27,733 nt of DNA, taken from a virus. A model generated the notes under the pieces. It was given only the letters and a program-made list of their open reading frames with translations, did no database searches and had not been told where the DNA came from. This document shows positions 1,558-11,239 of this stretch, piece after piece. Every line of letters starts with the position of its first letter. Position 1 is the stretch's first letter. Both the position numbers and the translations under genes were made by a program. The stretch lies in the UHGV virus genome UHGV-0042152; one strand, given 5' to 3'.

Positions 1558-2079
1558 ATGCGGGACTTCATTGCCGATAAAGAGTTATCTGACCACCAAC
1601 CACTTCAGGAAAGTGACGCACTCAGCGGATCCATTGATGCCGCCAACGACGACGAGCACGAAGAAAACAAGAAAAAGCGTTCCTACAAAAAAGGAGCGAC
1701 TTTGCGGCTGGATGGTCCGATCGCCGGGCTTTGCTCTCTGGAAAAAGGCGCGGCATATATTGGGCTAACAAAATCTGCACTGCGCGTAGCCATTCATCGC
1801 GGTCAAATGCCGGGACACAAGACGCGCACAAACCCGGAAGATGAAAACTCAGACGGAGTATGGTGGTTTAACGCCAAAGAGTGGGACAAGTTGGCTGATG
1901 AGCTACCAGAGCACGAGCCCCCAGAATGGCACAACTGGAAAAGTTACTGGACGTATGACCGCCAGAAAAGGAAGTTCTCTCCAGCTAATAAAGAAGACTG
2001 CCAGACCATTAACGGTAAGCGAGTTTATACAGGCAGAAGCTCAAAACTGGACCAACTCAGAAACAACAGAGGCAACTAA
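1558..2079 (+). CDS. First early-operon protein, Cox/excisionase-like HTH protein with acidic N-terminal extension (putative)
   Basis: Sits in the position of P2 cox directly after the switch region, with AGAGGA RBS. Possible HTH segment (IGLTKSALRVAIHRGQMPG) and a GVWWF segment loosely resembling Cox. At 173 aa it is much longer than P2 Cox (91 aa). Confidence 0.45.
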   Translation: MRDFIADKELSDHQPLQESDALSGSIDAANDDEHEENKKKRSYKKGATLRLDGPIAGLCSLEKGAAYIGLTKSALRVAIHRGQMPGHKTRTNPEDENSDGVWWFNAKEWDKLADELPEHEPPEWHNWKSYWTYDRQKRKFSPANKEDCQTINGKRVYTGRSSKLDQLRNNRGN

Positions 2080-2083
2080 TCGT

Positions 2084-2506
2084 ATGAAAACAAACACGTC
2101 AGATTTCACAATAACTATTTCAAAAAATGACCAAGCATTAATTGATAACCTGAAATACCTTGCGGAAAAACATAATAACGGACGAATTGCAATTAATTTA
2201 CGACACATCACAGGAGTAACAATTGTAACCAGTTACTGGCATCTATATCTAATCGCTAAATCAGTACTTGAAAACAAAGATTCTGTTGTCAATGGAAGAG
2301 ATATAGATACTCTTCCTGCACAAATCAAACCGATAGCCTATCAATTGCGTAATCGTTTTAAAAATGAAGGTGGGATTATATTTGACTTTCCCGCAGCTGT
2401 AGCCGTGAGCTTCTCTCGGGAGGATATACTTCACTCATTTCGTTTTGCTCTATCAGGTGACGAGACATTATGGCAGCTAGAAGATGCCGGGAGCAGCCCG
2501 GCATAA
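2084..2506 (+). CDS. Hypothetical protein (141 aa) in AT-rich island
   Basis: ORF with ATG at 2084 and an AGAGG RBS about 12 nt upstream. Markedly AT-rich codon usage relative to flanking phage genes. No recognisable motif. Confidence 0.5.
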   Translation: MKTNTSDFTITISKNDQALIDNLKYLAEKHNNGRIAINLRHITGVTIVTSYWHLYLIAKSVLENKDSVVNGRDIDTLPAQIKPIAYQLRNRFKNEGGIIFDFPAAVAVSFSREDILHSFRFALSGDETLWQLEDAGSSPA

Positions 2507-2512
2507 ATCAAA

Positions 2513-2704
2513 TTAAAAATCAACCAGTTGTGTGACAGGTGGGTATTTACGCTGAATTTTGTCAGTTACTAACGCCAGTAATATATGAATCTCTGTGTTT
2601 AATGCGTCTTTATCACCCGTCGTTTTTACCCTGGGAGGGTTAATGTTATCCAGAGCAGCACTAAGTTCACTCAACAAATTAACAACTTTTTTATCTTCTG
2701 ACAT
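2513..2704 (-). CDS. Hypothetical small protein (63 aa), convergent with upstream gene
   Basis: Minus-strand ORF with an AAGAGG RBS 5 nt upstream of the ATG. Lies in the same AT-rich island. No motif recognised. Confidence 0.35.
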   Translation of the reverse strand: MSEDKKVVNLLSELSAALDNINPPRVKTTGDKDALNTEIHILLALVTDKIQRKYPPVTQLVDF

Positions 2705-2841
2705 GAAAACCTCTTAACAATTTAATTAAACATAAGCCAGGACCTGAACCGGCCAGTCCAAGTCCTAGACACACAAAAAAAATACCACAAATCAATACAA
2801 GGTGACACGAGTACACCTTACCGAAGGTACAGAGTTTTAAT

Positions 2842-3192
2842 ATGAAACTACAGCGCAATTCTTCACAGCAGCGCTTCCGCAACGGTGCGGAACGCCATGC
2901 TAACCGTTTCGCTACCAGTGCATCACGTAGCAACTCTCGCTACAGCCTGAGCGAAACACACGCCACACCTGATGGACATCCCGTAAAACAAATCGGCGAG
3001 CACACTTGGTTGATTGAGAAAGCTGGAATCGTGGTCCACAAATGCCCACGCAATCCGTTTACCGGAAACCGCATTTTTGCATTGAACTGCGGCGACAATC
3101 ACTTCGGGCAGGATTTCACATTGTACGAAGCACTTCGCACGGTTGATCGTCTGCTTCGTGGGCAAAGTTTTATTAAACAGGCTGATTTATAA
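2842..3192 (+). CDS. Hypothetical early protein (116 aa)
   Basis: ORF in early operon orientation. No recognisable domain. Confidence 0.45.
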   Translation: MKLQRNSSQQRFRNGAERHANRFATSASRSNSRYSLSETHATPDGHPVKQIGEHTWLIEKAGIVVHKCPRNPFTGNRIFALNCGDNHFGQDFTLYEALRTVDRLLRGQSFIKQADL

Positions 3193-3202
3193 CAGGTGCT
3201 TT

Positions 3203-3481
3203 ATGACCAAAGAGCATGCTCAAGGTGTATTTATTCGTTTTATTGATTTTCGCGGTGAACTGTTATTACGCGCATCAGCTATTGATGGAGTCGTTCCATC
3301 CGAAAAAAATGCAGCTACTTACGTTTATCTGAACGGCACGCGCCTGACCGTAGAACTTCCGTACCAGACTGTACACGAAATCAGTAGCGAAGCGGAAAAA
3401 GCACGTAAGACTAATGGCGATGAACCCTATATCGAAATTATTTGTATGGATTCAGAAGCTGAAATCCAGAAAGCAGATTAA
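3203..3481 (+). CDS. Hypothetical early protein (92 aa)
   Basis: ORF with ATG at 3203, chosen to avoid overlap with the upstream ORF. No recognisable domain. Confidence 0.45.
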   Translation: MTKEHAQGVFIRFIDFRGELLLRASAIDGVVPSEKNAATYVYLNGTRLTVELPYQTVHEISSEAEKARKTNGDEPYIEIICMDSEAEIQKAD

Positions 3482-3492
3482 AGGGTGTTGCA

Positions 3493-3735
3493 ATGGACAA
3501 AGAATATAAAACACTCATCAACAAAGCACTTGAGCGTTTTTATTTTCGCTTAAGCGCATCAGGCGTTCATGCTGAACGTGCAGCCCGTGACTCATTGACC
3601 AGGGCAATCCGGAGTCTGTATGACGTGGCTTTTTACGCTGATGATCTGGATGCACTTAACGAACTTTCCGAGCTGATCTGTGCCGCAGAATGCGGAGAAC
3701 ATATTGAACCGTATAAGCTGGGGAATATCGCATGA
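3493..3735 (+). CDS. Hypothetical early protein (80 aa)
   Basis: ORF with ATG at 3493, close-packed with neighbours. No recognisable domain. Confidence 0.45.
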   Translation: MDKEYKTLINKALERFYFRLSASGVHAERAARDSLTRAIRSLYDVAFYADDLDALNELSELICAAECGEHIEPYKLGNIA

Positions 3736-3845
3736 GTATATTTATGTCATGGATTGTTCTGATTATTTCAGTGGTCTGCGCAATTGGCATTGTGCGAATT
3801 ATTCATTCAGTAAAAAAGATTGAGCGTTTTTTCACTGAAGAATAA
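3732..3845 (+). CDS. Putative small hydrophobic peptide (37 aa, single transmembrane helix)
   Basis: ATG at 3732 overlaps the upstream stop (ATGA). Translation MSIFMSWIVLIISVVCAIGIVRIIHSVKKIERFFTEE is one hydrophobic helix plus a basic tail. Below the ORF-track size cutoff. Confidence 0.3.
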   Translation: MSIFMSWIVLIISVVCAIGIVRIIHSVKKIERFFTEE

Positions 3846-3935
3846 CAGCACAAATAAAACACACGATTAAATAAGAAAACATGAAAACAATCCGCACTCG
3901 CGGAGGGCTTTGTACATTCAAATAAGGCGGCAACG

Positions 3936-4253
3936 ATGAAACAAAATAAAGAAGACAAAATTCAATGCGACGCATTAACTATTCTTGCTCATCTCCAGGA
4001 TTGCAAACTGGAAGAGGCGCTCCCCGTCGCTCTTGAACTAACCAGAACACTTGTTAGTGAAATTGACCCGGAACGCGACATCGGCACGTTTACTGTTGCA
4101 CTGGCGGCAAAGGCCCTGTTAACGGAACTCTCATCAACCCTTGATTCGCTTTTCGCCGAAATAGACGAGTTGCACGACCACATTGAAGAGCTGGAAATCC
4201 AGCTATCCCGCATCCGTCGCCAGAAACAGAACAGTGGGCGCAATGGCAATTAA
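3936..4253 (+). CDS. Hypothetical acidic, coiled-coil-like protein (105 aa)
   Basis: ORF with AAGG-type RBS. C-terminal heptad-like acidic stretch (EIDELHDHIEELEIQLSRIRRQ). Confidence 0.45.
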   Translation: MKQNKEDKIQCDALTILAHLQDCKLEEALPVALELTRTLVSEIDPERDIGTFTVALAAKALLTELSSTLDSLFAEIDELHDHIEELEIQLSRIRRQKQNSGRNGN

Positions 4254-4446
4254 GCACTTTCCTGTCGTTCGTTTTACCTCCAGAGGACGTGAATACGAAG
4301 TCGACGAACGCCTGATTACCACAATCGACAAACACCGTTCAGAAAAGGATGCACACCACATCTACCTCACTGACGGCACTTACTTCTGCGCCACCAACGT
4401 GGTGCGGGTGAACCTTATCCGACAGGTACAGGAGTCATGCAGATGA
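4243..4446 (+). CDS. Hypothetical protein (67 aa)
   Basis: ORF starting at the ATG at 4243 (MAIKHFPVVRF...), overlapping the upstream stop. Confidence 0.4.
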   Translation: MAIKHFPVVRFTSRGREYEVDERLITTIDKHRSEKDAHHIYLTDGTYFCATNVVRVNLIRQVQESCR

Positions 4447-4688
4447 CCATTCTGGACTATATCGCCGCCAATCCGGGGTGTAGCGGTGGAGAAATCGCCG
4501 CAGCACTGAATACCCCAACCACAGCTATTAATGCGGAGTTACGCCGACTCTGGCGTAGCGGTTCAGTCATAAGAAAAGAGCGCAAAACAGGTGGTCGCTT
4601 CTCTTACCAGGTAAACCCGATGCCGTTCGGGTGCGGCAATCCACTTACCAATATGTTTAACCAGTTACTGAAGGAAGCCAGAGCATGA
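4437..4688 (+). CDS. Small winged-helix-like DNA-binding protein (83 aa)
   Basis: CAGGAG RBS. Segment GCSGGEIAAALNTPTTAINAELRRLWRSGSV has the look of a winged HTH recognition helix. Overlaps the upstream stop. Confidence 0.45.
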   Translation: MQMTILDYIAANPGCSGGEIAAALNTPTTAINAELRRLWRSGSVIRKERKTGGRFSYQVNPMPFGCGNPLTNMFNQLLKEARA

Positions 4689-4981
4689 GCATCATCAACC
4701 ACCAGGAACTACGCGAACTGGCGACTGCCGTGCAAAGAATACCCCCCCATGAATCACTACCATCTCGCGTGAGCTTACAACCGTCAGTGGTGTTGGCACT
4801 GCTGGATGAGTTGGAGCACGCCAGAACCACGGCCCCTGCCATTCGCCTGACACTCCATCATGAAATCGCTGATTTCTGCGCGACGTTGGAGGCGCCAGGC
4901 GAACCGGAAACGCCGGAAGCAATACAGCAAGAGCTGCTGCAACGCATTGACAAGGTTTTCGATTTTTTCCTTAACCAGTAA
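4685..4981 (+). CDS. Hypothetical protein (98 aa)
   Basis: ORF translationally coupled to the upstream gene (ATGA overlap). Confidence 0.45.
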   Translation: MSIINHQELRELATAVQRIPPHESLPSRVSLQPSVVLALLDELEHARTTAPAIRLTLHHEIADFCATLEAPGEPETPEAIQQELLQRIDKVFDFFLNQ

Positions 4982-4991
4982 GGGCCGCAAC

Positions 4992-5195
4992 ATGAACAAC
5001 AAGACATGGTTTCGTGCATATGCATGGGCGCTGGTATGCGTCCTCGTCTCTCTCATTCTGTATGTAGGGGTACTCCCCCGAATGATTTCATCAGACAGCT
5101 CCTTCCTGGTATTGCTGGGCATTTTCATTGCCATGCTGTACCCGGCAGGCGTTGTTCGCCTTTTCAGTAAGTACATCAAGGAAATCAAACAATGA
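4992..5195 (+). CDS. Small inner-membrane protein (67 aa, two predicted TM helices), partner of SPFH protein
   Basis: Hydrophobic segments WALVCVLVSLILYVGVL and FLVLLGIFIAMLYPAGVV. Stop overlaps the start of the downstream SPFH gene (ATGA at 5192). Confidence 0.5.
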   Translation: MNNKTWFRAYAWALVCVLVSLILYVGVLPRMISSDSSFLVLLGIFIAMLYPAGVVRLFSKYIKEIKQ

Positions 5196-6022
5196 AGAAA
5201 TTCAGACTCTTTCAGATTCTCCCGCTTTTTGCCGCCATCCTGCTGGTTGGCTGCGATCGCGTTGAGCCAGGTAATGTGGGCATCAAAGTCAACAAGCTGG
5301 GCGACGACAAAGGCGTTGGCGAAGTGGTTGGCGTTGGCCGCTACTGGACTGGCTGGAATACCGAGGTTTACATCTTCCCGACCTTCAAACAAATGAAGAC
5401 CTACGATGACCCGTTCAGCTTCCAGATGAGTGACGGCACAACCATCGGCTATCACATCGGCGTGGCCTACAAGGTCGATCCATCCAAAGTTACCACAGTG
5501 TTTCAGACCTACCGCAAAGGCGTGGACGACATTACCGACACTGACCTGCGCCAGAAGATCGCCGACGCACTCAACCGACTGGCCAGCAAAATGACCACAG
5601 ATAAATTCATCGACGGTGGCAAGTCTGAACTGCTGGATTCAGCACTTAAAGATATTCAGGCAGAAATGACACCCATCGGCATTCAGGTAATGAGCCTCTC
5701 TTATGTCGGTAAACCGGAATACCCACCAACCGTGATCGACAGCATTAATGCCAAAGTCACAGCGAACCAGAAAACCCTGCAACGCGAACAGGAAGTAAAA
5801 CAGCGCGAAGCAGAAGCCAACATGTTGCGCGCAGAAGCTGCCGGACAGGCTGATGCCATTCGTACAAAAGCCCAGGCTGAAGCCGACGCCATTCGTTTAC
5901 GCGGTGAAGCTCTGCGCCAGAATCCCGGCGTTATGGAGCTGGAAGCGATTAACAAATGGAACGGCACGCTACCGCAATACATGACCAGTAACACCGCTGT
6001 TCCGTTTGTTCCGGTGAAGTAA
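5192..6022 (+). CDS. SPFH/band-7 (HflK/C-prohibitin-like) domain lipoprotein
   Basis: N-terminal lipoprotein signal with lipobox LLVGC. Central SPFH-like region followed by an Ala/Glu/Arg/Gln-rich coiled-coil tail (QREQEVKQREAEANMLRAEAAGQADAIRTKAQAEADAIRLRGEALRQ) typical of band-7 proteins. Confidence 0.7.
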   Translation: MKKFRLFQILPLFAAILLVGCDRVEPGNVGIKVNKLGDDKGVGEVVGVGRYWTGWNTEVYIFPTFKQMKTYDDPFSFQMSDGTTIGYHIGVAYKVDPSKVTTVFQTYRKGVDDITDTDLRQKIADALNRLASKMTTDKFIDGGKSELLDSALKDIQAEMTPIGIQVMSLSYVGKPEYPPTVIDSINAKVTANQKTLQREQEVKQREAEANMLRAEAAGQADAIRTKAQAEADAIRLRGEALRQNPGVMELEAINKWNGTLPQYMTSNTAVPFVPVK

Positions 6023-6028
6023 TTAAAC

Positions 6029-6053
6029 CCGGCCAGTGAAAACCGCTGGCCGG
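6029..6053 (+). other. Stem-loop (8-bp stem CCGGCCAG/CTGGCCGG) immediately after the SPFH gene
   Basis: Perfect inverted repeat read in the sequence. No directly adjacent U-run, so possibly a stability element rather than a terminator. Confidence 0.4.
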
Positions 6054-6188
6054 AGCAGTATCAGGATTTTTTAGTATGCCGTTCTCACAAAAAAACCGCT
6101 TGCCATGCCGCAATCAGTCAGGTTACATTTCCGCTGCACCTCATAAAACGGGTGCCGGGATTGGAACCCCGCAGACTAACAGAGCGCA

Positions 6189-6211
6189 CAACCGCGCCAG
6201 CGGTTTTTTTG
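6189..6211 (+). terminator. Candidate rho-independent terminator
   Basis: ACCGC-GCCA-GCGGT hairpin followed by TTTTTTT at 6204-6210. Confidence 0.45.
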
Positions 6212-6389
6212 TGCGTGCCGTATCGCCACGTCTTTTTCGCGTCAGAATTATGGTGGGGCGTACAGGGCCAGCATCAGCTGGGCCGGGTCCTCTGTTAGCC
6301 GGTAGTTCCAACCCTGTACGTCTCACCACCCCGAGCTTGGAACCTCTGGATGGTGAGTTTTCAAAACTAACTAACAGAGAGGCCACATC

Positions 6390-6620
6390 ATGGCAAACCG
6401 CAAACAGCACCGCGCTATCGCGGAGCGTCGTCACATCCAGACTGAAATCAACCGCAGACTTTTCCGCGCATCACGCGTCGCGCAAATCATGCACATCAAT
6501 ATGCTGCATGAGCGCAGCCACGCACTATCAAACATTTATTCCGCCTCTGTTTTCAGCTATCTGGCGGATGATCTGCGCGAGCTTCAGCAGCTCATCCAGC
6601 AGCAAAACAAACTCCATTAA
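6390..6620 (+). CDS. Hypothetical basic protein (76 aa)
   Basis: ORF with AGAGAGG RBS. Arg/His-rich N-terminus. No family recognised. Confidence 0.45.
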   Translation: MANRKQHRAIAERRHIQTEINRRLFRASRVAQIMHINMLHERSHALSNIYSASVFSYLADDLRELQQLIQQQNKLH

Positions 6621-6692
6621 TTCCTGTTCCAGGCCTTTCCTGCACCTTGCGGCGGGAGGCCTTCGCACATCTGTAGCAAGAGGATTGCCGCA

Positions 6693-7058
6693 ATGATTCT
6701 CGCCAACGACTTTCTTGAATACCTGCTCAACACAGAACGTGATCTTGCCGCTCGCGTGCGTGATCGTTATGACATGTACCTGAAATCCCTGCCTGTACCG
6801 CAGCTCGCTGACGGAAAGATTGTTATTGATGGTCGCTACATGATTGACAGCCATGAGGAAAATTACAGGCTTTACCGCATTGAAGGTGGCACCCCGTCCG
6901 TTATTGGCATTTACCAGCGCCCATCCTCTGCAATCGTCGATGTGATTGCCGACAGCATCCGCATCACACATCGCCATGCCGACACAGAAGACACCGTGCT
7001 GGAAATTCAGCGGCTGGCTACAGTCTGCCGCGACACCCTGAATGGCATGACGAAGTAA
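6693..7058 (+). CDS. Hypothetical protein (121 aa) immediately upstream of gpA
   Basis: ORF with AGAGGA RBS, in the position of the small P2 ORFs that precede gene A. Confidence 0.5.
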   Translation: MILANDFLEYLLNTERDLAARVRDRYDMYLKSLPVPQLADGKIVIDGRYMIDSHEENYRLYRIEGGTPSVIGIYQRPSSAIVDVIADSIRITHRHADTEDTVLEIQRLATVCRDTLNGMTK

Positions 7059-7064
7059 ATCACT

Positions 7065-9887
7065 ATGACGGCAGAGTACATCAGGGACTGGCAACAACCG
7101 CGCCACGCAGTGGGTCGTGAAGGAACGGGAATCCCCGCTCCTGAATCCGAGCTTTCCTCCTGGCTGGATGCCTACCGGGCAGAGAACGAGCGCCGCCAGG
7201 AAATGGCTGATGCGGCGTTCTCCGCCACGCCGCTGGGCAACCTGATTAATAAAAGCCTGGACGCACAGGAAAAACAGGACAAAACCATCACACTGGCCAG
7301 AGAAGCCAGAAAACAGGCACGTGGCGCGGTGGATGAAGCCATGGCCTCGCTGCGCCTGCTGCCGTCCTATCTGCGCGATCCGCTTATTCGCCACCTCTCC
7401 TTCCTGCGCAAAAAACAGGAAGCCGATCGCCGGAAAGGCAAAAAGAGCTGGCAGGCGGAACGCTATGCACGCGGAACCCTGCGCAAAATATTCGAACGTC
7501 TGGATCGCACTGACGGACACTGGCTGACACCGGGTTATCGCTCCCTTGCCGGACGCGAACGCCTGGACGATTTGCTTTACCTGCCGCAGCTCAACAAACA
7601 CCAGATACAGACGCTGGCCACCATGACGGCGGCGATGTTCAGCAGCACCTTCGAAAAACTCTGTGATGGCTTTGGTGCCAGAGATGGCGAGCTGACCATG
7701 GATGTAACGCTGAAGGCGTATCAGATGCTGGCCCGCATGGCGTTACACCTGCACATCATGCCTCCACATTATGACGCACTGACAACAGATAAAGACCGGA
7801 GGAACGAACCGGACACGGAGCTGCTGCCGGGCGCAGTCCTTCGCCTGACCTGTGCGGAATGGTGGAAACGCAAACTGTGGCTGTTACGTTGCGAGTGGAG
7901 AGAAGAACAACTCCGCGCCGCCTGTCTGGTTTCCAGAAAAACATCACCCTATCTGAGCCAGGACGCGTTAAGCGAGTTTCGCGCACAGCGCGAGAAAACA
8001 CGCGATTTCCTGAAAAGTTTCATGCTGGAAAACGAAGACGGGTTCACGATTGATCTCGAGACAGTGTATTACGCGGGAGTAAGTAACCCGGTTCACCGTA
8101 AGGCAGAAATGATGGCCACCATGAAGGGGCTGGAACTTCTGGCCGAAGCCCGTGGCGACAAAGCGGTGTTTCTGACTGTCACCTGCCCGTCAAAATACCA
8201 CGCCACAACAGAGAACGGTCATCCGAATCCCAAATGGAACGGGGCCACCATGCGCGACTCCAGCGATTACCTGGTTAACACGTTTTTTGCGGCGGTCCGC
8301 AAAAAACTGAACCGCGACGGTCTTCGCTGGTATGGCATCCGCACGGTGGAGCCTCACCATGACGGCACCGTGCACTGGCATATGATGGTCTTTGCTCATC
8401 CGGAAGAAATCGACAGCATCGTGGCCATCACCCGCGATATTGCCATTCAGGAAGACCGCCACGAGCTGGGCAATGATATTACTCCGCGCTTTAAGGCGGA
8501 GTATGTCGACGGCTCAAAAGGCACACCAACCAGCTATATCGCGACCTACATCGGAAAGAACCTGGACAGCCGCGCCGTGGATGGCATCGACCCGAAAACG
8601 GGCAAGCCACGCGTTGACCACGAAACCGGAAAATCAATGGCCGAGAGTGTGGAGCGCGCCATCGGCTGGGCGCGCCTTCATCGGGTCCGCCAGTTCCAGT
8701 TCTTTGGCATCCCCCCCCGTCAGGTGTGGCGTGAACTGCGCCGCCTTGCCAGCCAGATGGCACGCAACCCGGAAGGCCCGCAACGACTGAAAGATGACGC
8801 AATGGATGCGGTACTCGCTGCCGCCGATGCCGGGTGTTTTGCCACCTACATTGAAAAACAGGGCGGCGTACTTGTTCCACGCAAAGACTACCTGATTCGC
8901 ACCGCCTACGACCTCGCAGATGAGCTGAATGATTACGGCGAACAGAGCGTACAGATTTACGGGATCTGGTCACCACTCATCGGGGAATCCTCCCGTGTGT
9001 GCACGCATCCGGATAACTGGAAACTGGTAAGACGTAAACCGGAAACGGAAGACAGCGCCCGCGAAAATGGTTTTGACCTTCAGGGCGGCCCTGCCGCCCC
9101 TTGGACTCGTGGCAATAACTGTCCCCGTGTACAGGAAACGGACAACAACGGGACAGAACAGCCGGAAGAACGGCCAGCACCGTGGCCGCAGCTTCCTGAC
9201 GGCGTTGACGTGAACGAATGGATGCGCTCACTGAAACGGCACGAACGCCGGGCGCTGATGCGTTCGCTGCGTGACAAACAGGCAAAAAACAGCAGTGATG
9301 AAATGCAGAGCTGGACACAGAGCCGCAAACAGCAGCGGCCTTTGCCTGATAACCACGAATTACTCGCTAAAGAATGGCGGGAATCTGCCGAATCTCTCGG
9401 CCTGCATATCGGTGAACAGCAGATGCAGCACCTGTTACGGGGCGGCAGCCTGTACGTTGACGGCAGCATCATTGCACCGCAGGGATTTGAAATTGTACGC
9501 AAACCGGATACCCGCCCGGACAGCCGAATCACGCAGCTCTGGCAGCGCCTGAGCCGTAATCACGGCGTAAGCAGCACGGAGATCCGCCATAACCCGGTCG
9601 CCAGCTATCTGGAACAGCTGGGGGCATCAGACCCCGAAGCCGCCGCACGTCTGGCATCCACACTTCAGCAGGACCAGAACACCATGACCCCCCCCGTTAC
9701 CGTGCTTTCTGACATGCTGCGCGCCATCCGCGACGCAGAGCACGCACAGAGAATCAGTGAAACCACTGAACGTGCCCGCCGCAAAGCAGACCTGCTGCGG
9801 GGTGGCCTGACCAGTGGAAACAAAAAACAGACAGAAACGGGATTCACAAATCCCGTAAATGAGCAAAAAACGCGCCGCGATATATGA
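7065..9887 (+). CDS. A: Replication initiation protein gpA (rolling-circle HUH endonuclease)
   Basis: Central region matches P2 gpA (VFLTVTCPSKYH..., VEPHHDGTVHWHMMVF HUH motif, YIATYIGKNLD catalytic-Tyr region). 940 aa versus 761 aa in P2, so the ends are diverged or extended. Confidence 0.9.
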   Translation: MTAEYIRDWQQPRHAVGREGTGIPAPESELSSWLDAYRAENERRQEMADAAFSATPLGNLINKSLDAQEKQDKTITLAREARKQARGAVDEAMASLRLLPSYLRDPLIRHLSFLRKKQEADRRKGKKSWQAERYARGTLRKIFERLDRTDGHWLTPGYRSLAGRERLDDLLYLPQLNKHQIQTLATMTAAMFSSTFEKLCDGFGARDGELTMDVTLKAYQMLARMALHLHIMPPHYDALTTDKDRRNEPDTELLPGAVLRLTCAEWWKRKLWLLRCEWREEQLRAACLVSRKTSPYLSQDALSEFRAQREKTRDFLKSFMLENEDGFTIDLETVYYAGVSNPVHRKAEMMATMKGLELLAEARGDKAVFLTVTCPSKYHATTENGHPNPKWNGATMRDSSDYLVNTFFAAVRKKLNRDGLRWYGIRTVEPHHDGTVHWHMMVFAHPEEIDSIVAITRDIAIQEDRHELGNDITPRFKAEYVDGSKGTPTSYIATYIGKNLDSRAVDGIDPKTGKPRVDHETGKSMAESVERAIGWARLHRVRQFQFFGIPPRQVWRELRRLASQMARNPEGPQRLKDDAMDAVLAAADAGCFATYIEKQGGVLVPRKDYLIRTAYDLADELNDYGEQSVQIYGIWSPLIGESSRVCTHPDNWKLVRRKPETEDSARENGFDLQGGPAAPWTRGNNCPRVQETDNNGTEQPEERPAPWPQLPDGVDVNEWMRSLKRHERRALMRSLRDKQAKNSSDEMQSWTQSRKQQRPLPDNHELLAKEWRESAESLGLHIGEQQMQHLLRGGSLYVDGSIIAPQGFEIVRKPDTRPDSRITQLWQRLSRNHGVSSTEIRHNPVASYLEQLGASDPEAAARLASTLQQDQNTMTPPVTVLSDMLRAIRDAEHAQRISETTERARRKADLLRGGLTSGNKKQTETGFTNPVNEQKTRRDI

Positions 9888-9963: not shown

Positions 9964-10923
9964 ATGAAAATTTGTATCGACGACGGCTCCACCAACATCA
10001 AGCTGGCATGGACTGAGAATGGCGAACGCCGCAACGCCATCAGCCCGAACAGCTTCAAGTCGGAATGGTCTGCGCCGTTCGGTGGCATGCAGCCCGCGAA
10101 CTACATGCTTGATGGCGTGCGCTATGGTTTTGATCCGGTTAGCGATCGCTTTGTCCAGACGACCGACACGCAATACCAGTACAGCGATGTGAATGTAATC
10201 GCCATTCATCACGCGCTGGTCAAATCAGGCATCACGCCACAGGAGGTGGATGTGGTTGTCACCCTGCCACTGAGCGAGTATTTCGACACAAACGCACAGC
10301 CGGACATGGCCAACATCAACCGCAAAAAAGCGAACGTTATGCGCCCGGTGGAGTACCAGAACGGCGAAGCATTCACTATCCGTAACGTGCGGGTTATGCC
10401 TGAATCCATTCCGGCTGGCTTTAAGGCACTGGCTGACATGAGTCCGTTTGAATCCCTGCTGATTGTGGATTTAGGCGGAACCACGCTGGATGTGGCAAAG
10501 GTTCAGGGACAACTGGCAGGTATCAGCCAGGTGCTTTGCGATCCACACGTAGGCGTTTCCCTGATGGCCGATGCCGTACTGTCGGTGATGGCCACTAACG
10601 GTATGCGTACCAGTCACCACATCGCCAATACCATTATCGAACATCGCCATGATGAAGCCTGGCTGCGCCAGCACATCCACAATGACGCGCATTACGCCAG
10701 CCTGATGGCGGTTATTCGTGAAAAGGAAGAAACACTGAAACAACGCGTGATCCGCGCGCTGGCGGGTTTTTCGGGTTACGGGCGGGTGATGGTTGTCGGT
10801 GGCGGGGCAGAGATTGTGGCACCCGCTATCCGCGAAGCCTGCGGAGTTAATGCGACTTTCATCGCGGACGGGGTGCCACAGTTTGCTCTGGTTAATGGGC
10901 TGTACGCAATGGACAAGGAGTAA
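9964..10923 (+). CDS. parM: ParM/StbA-family actin-like segregation ATPase
   Basis: Strong similarity along the whole protein to plasmid R1 ParM as recalled (IDDGSTNIKL, ISPNSFK-EW, QYSDVNV-A-HHAL, VMPESIPAG, DLGGTTLD, GVSL, GGGAE, LVNG-Y). AAGGAAAAG RBS. Confidence 0.85.
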   Translation: MKICIDDGSTNIKLAWTENGERRNAISPNSFKSEWSAPFGGMQPANYMLDGVRYGFDPVSDRFVQTTDTQYQYSDVNVIAIHHALVKSGITPQEVDVVVTLPLSEYFDTNAQPDMANINRKKANVMRPVEYQNGEAFTIRNVRVMPESIPAGFKALADMSPFESLLIVDLGGTTLDVAKVQGQLAGISQVLCDPHVGVSLMADAVLSVMATNGMRTSHHIANTIIEHRHDEAWLRQHIHNDAHYASLMAVIREKEETLKQRVIRALAGFSGYGRVMVVGGGAEIVAPAIREACGVNATFIADGVPQFALVNGLYAMDKE

Positions 10924-10927
10924 ACCA

Positions 10928-11239
10928 ATGACGACACCAACCAGACGGATAAGTTTCTATCTGAAGCCCGCCGCCGTCAAGAACGAAGGCGAAGCATGCG
11001 CCTGGCTGGACAGCCTTACACCAGAAGCCCGCAAAAGTGGTCAACGCGTGGCTTTTCTGGCCGGGCTGGCACTACTGAAAATGAATCCGGCAGAGGCTTA
11101 CCGACTGGCTGCATGGGCTGATGATGAGGCGTTATCAATGACACAAACCAGGACAGAACGCCCCGCGTCACAGCCAGTATCAGCCGCACAGATAACCAGT
11201 CAGATGGCCGGAAATATCCGGGCGTTATTTCCCGAATAA
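10928..11239 (+). CDS. parR: ParR-like adaptor/centromere-binding protein (putative)
   Basis: Directly downstream of parM with an AAGGAG RBS. N-terminal region (RRISFYLKP...RVAFLAGLALLKMNP) resembles the R1 ParR N-terminus as recalled. Size is appropriate. Confidence 0.55.
   Translation: MTTPTRRISFYLKPAAVKNEGEACAWLDSLTPEARKSGQRVAFLAGLALLKMNPAEAYRLAAWADDEALSMTQTRTERPASQPVSAAQITSQMAGNIRALFPE

Follow-up and report, generated by a model that had tools for sequence, protein, structure and literature searches.

What does a phage gain from carrying, in its early operon, an SPFH protein coupled to a small membrane protein? [quoted passage not shown] Here we address this question for a gene pair located in UHGV virus genome UHGV-0042152 (27,733 nucleotides, referred to as the window), a P88-like (P2-family) prophage of E. 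coli.

Layout and expression of the gene pair

The pair and the cassette in which it resides comprise the following features:

4992..5195, + strand: small membrane-protein gene, 67 aa (ATG at 4992, stop at 5193-5195)
5192..6022, + strand: SPFH/Band-7 lipoprotein gene, 276 aa (ATG at 5192, stop at 6020-6022)
5003..6085, + strand: the cassette as a whole, inserted cleanly (1,083 bp) with respect to the related Xuanwuvirus P884B11, between an Ea22-like gene and the isrK promoter
6029..6053, + strand: GC-rich 10-bp hairpin closing the cassette (RNA fold -21.8 kcal/mol, z=-3.1)

Both open reading frames were recovered at the positions reported by the first-pass annotation, and the translational coupling it had proposed is borne out by an ATGA tetranucleotide (5192-5195) common to both genes, in which the stop codon of the small gene overlaps the start codon of the SPFH gene. 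Upstream of the latter, AAGGAAA (5178-5184) could act as the ribosome-binding site. The + strand is used throughout from cox (1558) to the replication gene A (7065-9887), while the integrase and repressor genes are encoded on the - strand; the assignment of the pair to the early operon (same strand and operon as cox and gene A) thus holds, as does the claimed absence of a counterpart from P2, in whose complete genome a tblastn search with both proteins gave a best E of 2.3. The insertion was delineated by blastn, in which window positions 4237-5002 matched positions 2838-3608 of L004 and positions 6086-8000 matched 3604-5518; the hairpin at 6029-6053 is missing at the same junction in P884B11. 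Other Xuanwuviruses covered 52% of a 2.3-kb query, split into two pieces, and the base composition of the cassette showed no contrast to that of its flanks.

A consensus scan of the window found no sigma-70-like site upstream of the module, and the hairpin is probably not a strong intrinsic terminator, since no U-run directly follows it; of a moron layout (own promoter and terminator), the window copy shows neither an upstream promoter-like site nor a U-run at the hairpin. Since the window copy lacks its own promoter and belongs, together with cox and gene A, to a single operon on one strand, it would probably be read from the P2-type early promoter once the phage has infected or been induced, and would stay silent in the resting lysogen. 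Consensus scans of the SSU5-like copy (L003) revealed a hairpin (3653-3672), a promoter-like site (3683-3711, 10 of 12 matches) and a hairpin with a T-run (4792-4811). Since it possesses its own promoter-like site and flanking terminators, this copy may be expressed in the carrier state, in which case transcription restricted to early lytic growth would not be a general property of the module.

An SPFH lipoprotein and its two-helix partner

The longer protein is divided as follows:

5192..5254, + strand: signal peptide, residues 1-21, with lipobox L18-V19-G20-C21 (5243-5254), by sequence reading
5258..5818, + strand: SPFH domain, residues 23-209 (Pfam envelope; beta-sheet plus helices in the model, pLDDT mostly >90)
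5726..5965, + strand: long helix (179-243), short helix (245-255) and C-terminal K-W-N-G motif (W256, G258), from the secondary structure of the model

Its description as a lipoprotein with an SPFH core withstood closer analysis: MKKFRLFQILPLFAAILLVG-C21-D22 matches the lipobox pattern [LVI][ASTVI][GAS]C followed by Asp at +2, and the Pfam Band_7 profile (PF01145) is matched with E=1e-30 and 107.5 bits (cut-off 23.6) over profile positions 2-176 of 176. Cys21 is invariant in the family alignments (41 and 52 sequences), as are W256 and G258, and the nucleotide homology to the phiP27/Stx copies starts with the first lipobox base (5243). Aspartate at +2 is the inner-membrane retention rule for E. 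coli, and Asp22, read as this classical signal, suggests that the protein remains in the inner membrane; such a location need not hold family-wide, since Ser, Thr or Glu takes the +2 position in many members. The AlphaFold model (single chain, pLDDT 86) comprises an alpha/beta SPFH core that leads into a long coiled-coil helix, the arrangement seen in cage-forming members, with HflC/HflK, prohibitin and erlin as its closest structural matches; the continuous helix 179-243, followed by 245-255, accounts for the long coiled-coil tail noted in the first-pass annotation. Judging from the model, the helices and the K-W-N-G region would be the counterparts of the wall and cap in SPFH cages, and the low monomer confidence of the C-terminal 30 residues (pLDDT 50-63) is consistent with a segment that becomes ordered only within an oligomer. 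The protein falls into PHROG 200 ('lipoprotein', E=5.4e-112). Its gene displays dN/dS values of 0.011-0.06 against three phage homologues (58 synonymous and 3 non-synonymous changes versus phiP27) and is therefore a real gene under constraint.

The 67-aa protein contains two hydrophobic segments (transmembrane helices at approximately residues 9-28 and 38-55), in keeping with the two-helix membrane partner anticipated from its reading frame. An N-in/C-in hairpin fits this protein because charges are present at both ends (K4, R8; R56, K60, K63, K66), and the family motif P29-R-M-I-S33-S-D-S-S would then lie in a short loop predicted to face the periplasm. The protein matches PHROG 1130 ('membrane protein', E=1.6e-20); homologues could be aligned across 14 phage lineages, with P29, S33 and G43 nearly invariant and a P-x-L-(I/V)-S motif common to the partners of different lineages. 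By these sequence features it belongs to a conserved two-helix family that precedes the SPFH lipoprotein in phages, an assignment that is new here. An NfeD-like identity, which had been raised for the partner, was rejected: the Pfam search gave no match to NfeD (PF01957) at E<=1, and a protein of 67 aa that consists almost entirely of two membrane helices is too short for the C-terminal OB-fold. The partner diverges fast: its counterparts in other phage lineages retain 18-46% identity to it, and dN/dS versus P88 is 0.41. Among the defence components of PADLOC-DB v2, no match was obtained for the SPFH protein, and the sole match of the partner was weak and short (PDC-M18B, E=0.008, 20 residues).

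A two-helix reading frame lies directly upstream of the SPFH gene, its stop overlapping the SPFH start, in 77 of the 84 fetched loci. Besides P2-family prophages, this arrangement is present in lambdoid phiP27/Stx phages, SSU5-like phage-plasmids, N4-like, T4-like and Vequintavirinae (rV5-like) phages, and also in 150-kb lytic, Burkholderia and crAss-like phages; in lytic phages the module is located in early or nucleotide-metabolism regions. Furthermore, some 20 of the 150 family representatives (50% identity) are longer proteins (322-392 aa) with two or three N-terminal hydrophobic segments, and the full-length reading of two such fused forms (P0001 and P0382) places the two-helix partner, the lipobox and the SPFH domain in a single chain; the P0001 model shows three helices and then the SPFH domain, its N-terminal part resting on two sequences. 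The in-frame fusion and the conserved pairing indicate that the small protein most likely serves, as a stoichiometric transmembrane subunit, to anchor an SPFH cage that faces the periplasm. It is not strictly required, since Ounavirinae phiEa21-4, Bruynoghevirus Ab22 and one 330-kb jumbo phage have either no partner or a different one. The module was found in 379 of 50,697 phage records (~0.7%), the ten commonest organism-name groups of which are all phages of Gram-negative bacteria, and in 542 of 5,426 complete E. coli genomes (~10%); within the P88-like prophages its carriers form a minority (123 versus 1,582 genomes). A scan for related loci with a 12-sequence alignment returned close relatives only. 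Taken together, the two genes constitute one mobile accessory module, an insertion-type cassette widespread in phages of Gram-negative bacteria.

Relation to known SPFH systems and to existing annotation

The FtsH-associated SPFH cage of E. coli, HflK/HflC (PDB 7VHP, 7VHQ, 7WI3, 9CZ2), has in common with the phage protein an inner-membrane-anchored SPFH domain facing the periplasm (predicted on the phage side) and the order of its parts (SPFH core, long helix, short helix, C-terminal segment). By sequence, the phage protein finds its best PDB match in HflK (E=7e-4), both HflC and HflK rank among the top structural matches, and identity to the distant cage homologues amounts to 12-18%. The kinship does not extend to family membership: HflC (TIGR01932) and HflK (TIGR01933) are the best NCBIfam matches, though with scores far below their cut-offs (24.8 versus 134.4 and 22.8 versus 159.4 bits, respectively), and membership was rejected. 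Moreover, HflK/C is a paralogous pair with N-terminal transmembrane anchors and lacks a two-helix partner, whereas the phage module has a single SPFH gene, a lipid anchor (lipobox) and such a partner. Arg191 of HflK has been reported as an FtsH contact (PMC12048511). The alignment of the phage protein with HflK (E=7e-4) is too weak to place this residue reliably. QmcA, another E. coli SPFH protein, faces the cytoplasm; the phage SPFH protein, by contrast, is predicted to be exported. The module also differs from SPFH-NfeD operons (E. coli QmcA-YbbJ, PDB 8Z5G, and YqiK-YqiJ; B. subtilis FloA/FloT with NfeD proteins) in that its partner has no NfeD domain and in that the small gene comes first, with overlapping stop and start. 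The prohibitin and erlin cages (PDB 8RRH, 9O9Z, 9O9U, 9VVJ; ~16% identity) are, for their part, eukaryotic, organellar, hetero-oligomeric and transmembrane-anchored.

Members of the same family as the window pair (PHROG 200 plus PHROG 1130) are already deposited as P88 gp11/gp12, phiP27 L05, the SSU5 genes and gp044/gp045 of Erwinia phage S6, with P88 gp12 occupying the same position and sharing 98.9% protein identity with the window SPFH protein. Database names for the SPFH members ('lipoprotein', 'serine protease', 'prohibitin' and 'transposase') give no function, and two of them, 'serine protease' and 'transposase', look wrong. The small partner gene is often left unannotated (e.g. phiP27, crAss cr128_1), as is the small ORF beside the unrelated SPFH gene of PhiSH19. 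The latter SPFH protein represents a different subfamily, without BLAST similarity to the window SPFH protein, and the 'superinfection exclusion protein' encoded near it was considered as a lead and discarded, being a soluble acidic protein. Our literature search on the phage SPFH pair found annotations and speculation on HflKC and lysogeny, no functional study, and no paper describing the partner pairing or the gene fusions; a 2026 paper regards the role of an SPFH gene in a phage genome as unclear (PMC13239085). Consequently, while fold and annotation were already known, the partner type and the topology are new.

Possible roles in the infected cell

The reading that we favour, and to which we would grant a little less than an even chance, is that this mobile module builds a periplasm-facing SPFH cage at the inner membrane together with its transmembrane partner, to the benefit of the phage in general and not of lysogeny in particular. 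The 276-aa protein would be exported, lipid-modified at Cys21 and retained at the inner membrane on its periplasmic side, where, by analogy with HflK/C, prohibitin and erlin, it probably oligomerizes into a dome or cage. The 67-aa protein would act as the transmembrane subunit, supplied in equal amounts through translational coupling, and would probably fasten the lipid-anchored cage to a bilayer patch by means of the short conserved loop on its periplasmic side. Such a cage would most likely fence off an inner-membrane patch or a membrane client in the infected cell; our leading guess for its output is the control of membrane-protein turnover or the protection of membrane integrity. Among bacterial SPFH cages that face the periplasm, the only precedent for a client, to our knowledge, is of the FtsH type. 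A more specific version, which we consider doubtful, is that of a minimal phage-specific nanocage on the periplasmic face of the inner membrane with a task in host takeover or conflict (i.e. caging FtsH or another client, excluding competitor DNA, or neutralizing abortive-infection effectors that attack the membrane). Should it prove true, it would provide the first function for a viral SPFH protein and a two-gene model of client selection by SPFH cages. Phages have repeatedly acquired a two-gene SPFH version and retained it under strong purifying selection, and the conserved (sometimes fused) partner that travels with the SPFH protein makes the unit easy to clone and test; a phenotype would inform phage-host membrane biology and could reveal the mode of anchoring and the contents of an SPFH cage.

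Superinfection exclusion or inter-phage defence, in which the pair would keep other phages from penetrating the envelope or delivering their DNA (during replication of the carrier phage or, for copies with their own promoter, in the carrier state), appears unlikely, in spite of several observations that it would explain. The module has a patchy, cassette-like spread over unrelated phage lineages, is cleanly inserted and occurs in a minority of P88-like prophages; the partner evolves fast while the SPFH core is nearly frozen; and the SSU5-like copy follows the classic moron order of terminator, promoter, genes and terminator. Exclusion agents are, moreover, usually small membrane proteins or periplasmic lipoproteins (T4 Imm/Sp, T5 Llp, phi80 Cor, TP-J34 Ltp). 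On the other hand, neither protein resembles catalogued exclusion or defence proteins (in PADLOC, the SPFH protein has no match and the partner a weak one at E=0.008), the window copy would be silent in the lysogen because it has no promoter of its own, and we know of no SPFH protein that excludes phages. An abortive-infection role, which the first-pass annotation had raised alongside exclusion, likewise drew no convincing PADLOC match for either protein.

The first-pass annotation had pointed to FtsH as the route by which the pair might influence the lysis-lysogeny decision, and a mimic of HflK/C that modulates FtsH would agree with the periplasmic orientation shared with HflK/C and with the prominence of HflK and HflC among the PDB, NCBIfam and structural matches. 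The FtsH inhibitor cIII of lambda is, likewise, located in an early operon. This proposal was nevertheless weakened to the point that we regard it as quite improbable: the same module is present in obligately lytic phages (T4-like, N4-like, Vequintavirinae and 150-kb phages), which make no lysis-lysogeny decision, an objection to the HflKC/lysogeny idea that has already been voiced (PMC8540360). HflK/HflC profile scores far under the cut-offs, a single SPFH gene and a lipid anchor in place of a transmembrane helix also speak against such a mimic. Furthermore, the carrier prophage uses a P2-type C/Cox switch, which is not known to depend on a CII-like FtsH substrate.

Of similarly low probability, in our opinion, is a counter-defence function, by which the cage would protect the inner membrane of the infected cell from host abortive-infection effectors that depolarize or perforate it. 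We know of no anti-defence protein with an SPFH fold. The suggestion stems from gene neighbourhoods (the lytic contig L089 carries NADAR, Gad2 and a PRPP-synthetase plus NAPRTase pair near the module, and L091 encodes an Acb2/Tad1-hairpin protein on the same contig, ~4.6 kb away), which were seen in 2 of about 12 contexts examined and constitute a weak association, since counter-defence genes generally abound in the early part of lytic phage genomes. It also draws on the titles of two reports, which tie SPFH proteins to membrane-stress tolerance (HflKC in aminoglycoside and oxidative stress; a B. subtilis SPFH protein linking PspA to the membrane; PMC10434171, PMC8581546).

That the module is a neutral passenger without benefit to the phage would accord with its dispensability (close relatives of the prophage lack it), and is nonetheless extremely improbable in view of the strong purifying selection on the SPFH gene (58 synonymous versus 3 non-synonymous changes, phiP27), the pairing conserved across very distant phages, the independent gene fusions and the presence of the module in 542 of 5,426 complete E. 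coli genomes.

Anatomy of the SPFH module in a P88-type prophage

The window comes from a P88-type prophage of E. coli (Xuanwuvirus, Peduoviridae, P2 family); over the 2.3 kb at 4400-6700 it matches the E. coli MS 198-1 chromosome with 100% identity and phage P88 with 93%.

Gene layout around the module
left end of the window, -: integrase and repressor genes
1558-9887, +: early operon (cox, several small genes, a winged-helix gene, the Ea22-like gene and replication gene A)
4685-4981, +: Ea22-like gene
4992-5195, +: partner ORF (67 aa), between the Ea22-like gene and gene A
5192-6022, +: SPFH ORF (276 aa), between the Ea22-like gene and gene A
7065-9887, +: replication gene A

The first-pass annotation had described a pair of coupled genes for a small membrane protein and an SPFH lipoprotein, with no equivalent in P2. 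The two-gene observation is correct, its anatomy is now better defined (67-aa and 276-aa ORFs, with stop and start sharing an ATGA at 5192-5195, and a plausible candidate ribosome-binding site for the SPFH gene at 5178-5184), and a homologue looked for in P2 was not found. The 276-aa protein carries a Band_7/SPFH domain (Pfam, E=1e-30, 107.5 bits against a cut-off of 23.6 bits) and matches PHROG 200 ‘lipoprotein’ (5e-112); its scores as HflK or HflC (22.8 and 24.8 bits, cut-offs 159.4 and 134.4) reject both identities. The protein begins with a lipoprotein signal peptide whose lipobox, LVGC, has Asp directly after the cysteine. As Asp in this position confers inner-membrane retention under the Lol-avoidance rule of E. 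coli, we infer that the lipoprotein is retained at the inner membrane. In the AlphaFold model (input of 52 sequences, mean pLDDT 86.3), an SPFH core is followed by a single helix (179-243), a shorter one (245-255) and a tail of poor definition. Public databases already annotate this gene family, giving homologues the labels ‘serine protease’, ‘putative transposase’, ‘outer membrane lipoprotein’, ‘prohibitin’ or ‘high frequency of lysogenization C protein’; the first two labels are unsupported by the domain searches run on the window proteins.

A conserved two-helix partner and its natural fusions

The 67-aa partner has two hydrophobic helices, is positively charged at both ends and matches PHROG 1130 ‘membrane protein’. 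An NfeD-like character was not borne out, as a Pfam search returned no match, NfeD included. Its near relatives are confined to E. coli, but the partner family is far wider: in other carriers a two-helix ORF of 49-78 aa lies directly 5' of the SPFH gene.

Carriers with a two-helix partner upstream of the SPFH gene
phiP27 (locus L002, 3759-3947; unannotated)
Stx-converting phages
SSU5-like phage-plasmid Cyrano
N4-like Erwinia phage S6
Vequintavirinae phage GEC_vB_MG (one short gene intervenes)
a Burkholderia phage
crAss-like phage cr128_1 (locus L100, 2317-2520; unannotated)
a T4-like 168-kb contig
a 40-kb phage contig
two 150-kb lytic-phage contigs

Fourteen of the partners could be aligned; they hardly vary at Pro29, Ser33 and Gly43 (window numbering), and each carries P-x-L-(I/V)-S-x-x-(D/S) where helix 1 ends on the periplasmic side. 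An automatic picker was run on 84 fetched loci and in 77 recovered a two-helix ORF whose stop overlaps the SPFH start. Of the seven misses, four concern P88-type loci in which an overlapping wrong-frame ORF was taken instead; among these four is L005, the window's own genome, so this miss is certainly an artefact. Another miss is a locus cut by a contig end. phiEa21-4, Bruynoghevirus Ab22 and a 330-kb jumbo contig lack the partner or have a different one. In PhiSH19 an unannotated two-helix ORF (L102, between 74,931 and 75,137) lies directly 5' of an SPFH lipoprotein gene, even though BLAST finds no similarity between that lipoprotein and the window SPFH family.

A search of 1.84 billion cluster representatives yielded 2,896 relatives at E<=0.001 (221 of them at E<=1e-30). 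Most of the best 150 have a lipobox and a single N-terminal hydrophobic segment, and about 20 are longer (322-392 aa), with two or three such segments. Two relatives, P0001 (347 aa, listed only at NCBI, SPFH part 97% identical, partner half of the Stx-phage type) and P0382 (355 aa, L091 58-1125), are natural in-frame fusions in the order two-helix partner, lipobox, SPFH; both partner halves contain P-x-x-(I/V)-S, and the P0001 model places helices at 5-38, 43-64 and 74-88 before the SPFH domain. The fusion agrees with the predicted topology, in which the partner ends, and the signal peptide begins, in the cytoplasm. The now internal lipobox cysteine is retained in both chains, and cleavage by signal peptidase II into two pieces is a possibility. 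We consider these fusions the strongest evidence that partner and SPFH protein act jointly and in equal amounts.

Mobility, expression signals and the adjoining RNA genes

Alignment with Xuanwuvirus P884B11 shows the module as a clean insertion of 1,083 bp (window 5003-6085), likewise absent from further Xuanwuviruses. The P88-type context with cassette occurs in ~123 of the 1,582 E. coli genomes matching a 2.3-kb query that spans cassette and flanks; the module itself is present in 542 of 5,426 complete E. coli genomes (391 sites in chromosomes and 210 on plasmids). Over the mature SPFH coding region the nucleotide identity to the phiP27 and Stx-phage copies is 91%, and this homology starts at a sharp mosaic boundary at 5243 (lipobox base 1); the signal peptide and partner gene (in phiP27, L002 3759-3992) show no nucleotide-level alignment to these copies, and the partners share only 22% protein identity. 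Partner and signal peptide seem to diverge jointly, as a single unit. A second small indel of the early operon is a ~307-bp segment (3930-4236) with a 105-aa ORF (3936-4253), missing at the same site in P88 and P884B11. Just past the replication gene (9964-11235) lie genes for a ParM-type plasmid segregation protein and for a protein of plasmid partitioning/stability. In a P2-like prophage this hints that the genome may pass through a plasmid-like phase or that its replicating copies are actively segregated.

Signals and RNA genes, promoter and terminator calls being from consensus scans only
window 6029-6053: GC-rich hairpin (10 bp) at the cassette end, -21.8 kcal/mol, z=-3.1, without adjacent U-run
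window 6100-6129: promoter-like site
window 6136-6210: isrK Hfq-binding sRNA (Rfam, 72.4 bits)
window 6190-6205: terminator-like site
window 6246-6333: C4 antisense RNA (Rfam, 78.5 bits)
window 6390-6620: ‘derepression protein’ ORF
Cyrano (L003) 3653-3672: hairpin upstream of the module
Cyrano 3683-3711: promoter-like TTGAAA-17-TATCAT (10/12 match), after the first hairpin
Cyrano 4792-4811: hairpin and T-run downstream of both genes

The consensus scan found no sigma-70-like site upstream of the module in the window, so the module is probably transcribed from the early promoter once the phage has infected or been induced. Unlike this copy, the module of Escherichia phage Cyrano (L003 3653-4811), whose bracketing hairpins have an identical stem (AGGCGTCC...GGACGCCT), looks like textbook moron architecture, so carriers may differ in how the module is expressed. 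The isrK and C4 region (window 6076-6700), directly 3' of the cassette, is similar to an antirepressor control region of the P1 immI or Gifsy-1 isrK type, here within a P2-like phage; an ‘ash family’ pseudogene (RefSeq) and a 205-aa ‘transcriptional regulator’ (P884B11), annotated across these RNA genes, are probably mis-annotations.

Phage distribution and candidate functions

A tblastn search matched the SPFH protein in 379 of 50,697 phage records. Grouped by the first word of the organism name, the ten most frequent sets (Pseudomonas, Klebsiella, Erwinia, Escherichia, Burkholderia, Caulobacter, Salmonella, Prevotella, Stx2a-converting and Stenotrophomonas) all consist of phages of Gram-negative bacteria. 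Carriers include P2-like, lambdoid, phage-plasmid, N4-like, rV5-like, Felix-O1-like, T4-like, jumbo, phiCbK-like and crAss-like phages and Lak megaphages, and in lytic phages the module is placed in early or nucleotide-metabolism regions. We argue from this breadth that the module serves phage infection generally, in cells that possess a periplasm.

SPFH ORFs of the T4-like phages RB43, 44RR and Aeh1 were noted as early as 2006 (PMC1524935); later papers annotate the gene and speculate on HflK/C and lysogeny (PMC8540360, PMC4936722), and one suggests a role in adsorption or DNA entry and says that what the gene does in a phage genome ‘remains unclear’ (PMC13239085, 2026). We found no functional study of the phage module in the literature, and the partner, the fusions and the breadth of the family are undescribed in the papers that could be searched.

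The best-supported reading is structural: the module would assemble an SPFH oligomer that faces the periplasm and is anchored in the inner membrane, with the two-helix protein as its transmembrane subunit. Joined to a general control of the membrane or of client proteins, for which FtsH is to our knowledge the only precedent, this account is our leading, though tentative, explanation as a whole. Superinfection exclusion, also raised in the first-pass annotation, appears unlikely. Still less probable is its proposal of lysis-lysogeny control through FtsH, which is weakened by the broad spread of carriers across phage types, an argument against a role in the lysogeny decision. One lytic-phage contig with the module also encodes NADAR, Gad2 and an NAD-salvage pair, and another has an Acb2/Tad1-like gene ~4.6 kb away; counter-defence by the module itself is, to a similar degree, improbable. 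Strong purifying selection acts on the SPFH gene (58 synonymous versus 3 non-synonymous changes in the comparison with phiP27, dN/dS 0.011; dN/dS 0.026 against P88 and 0.06 against an SSU5-like copy), and that the module is a neutral passenger seems very improbable indeed.
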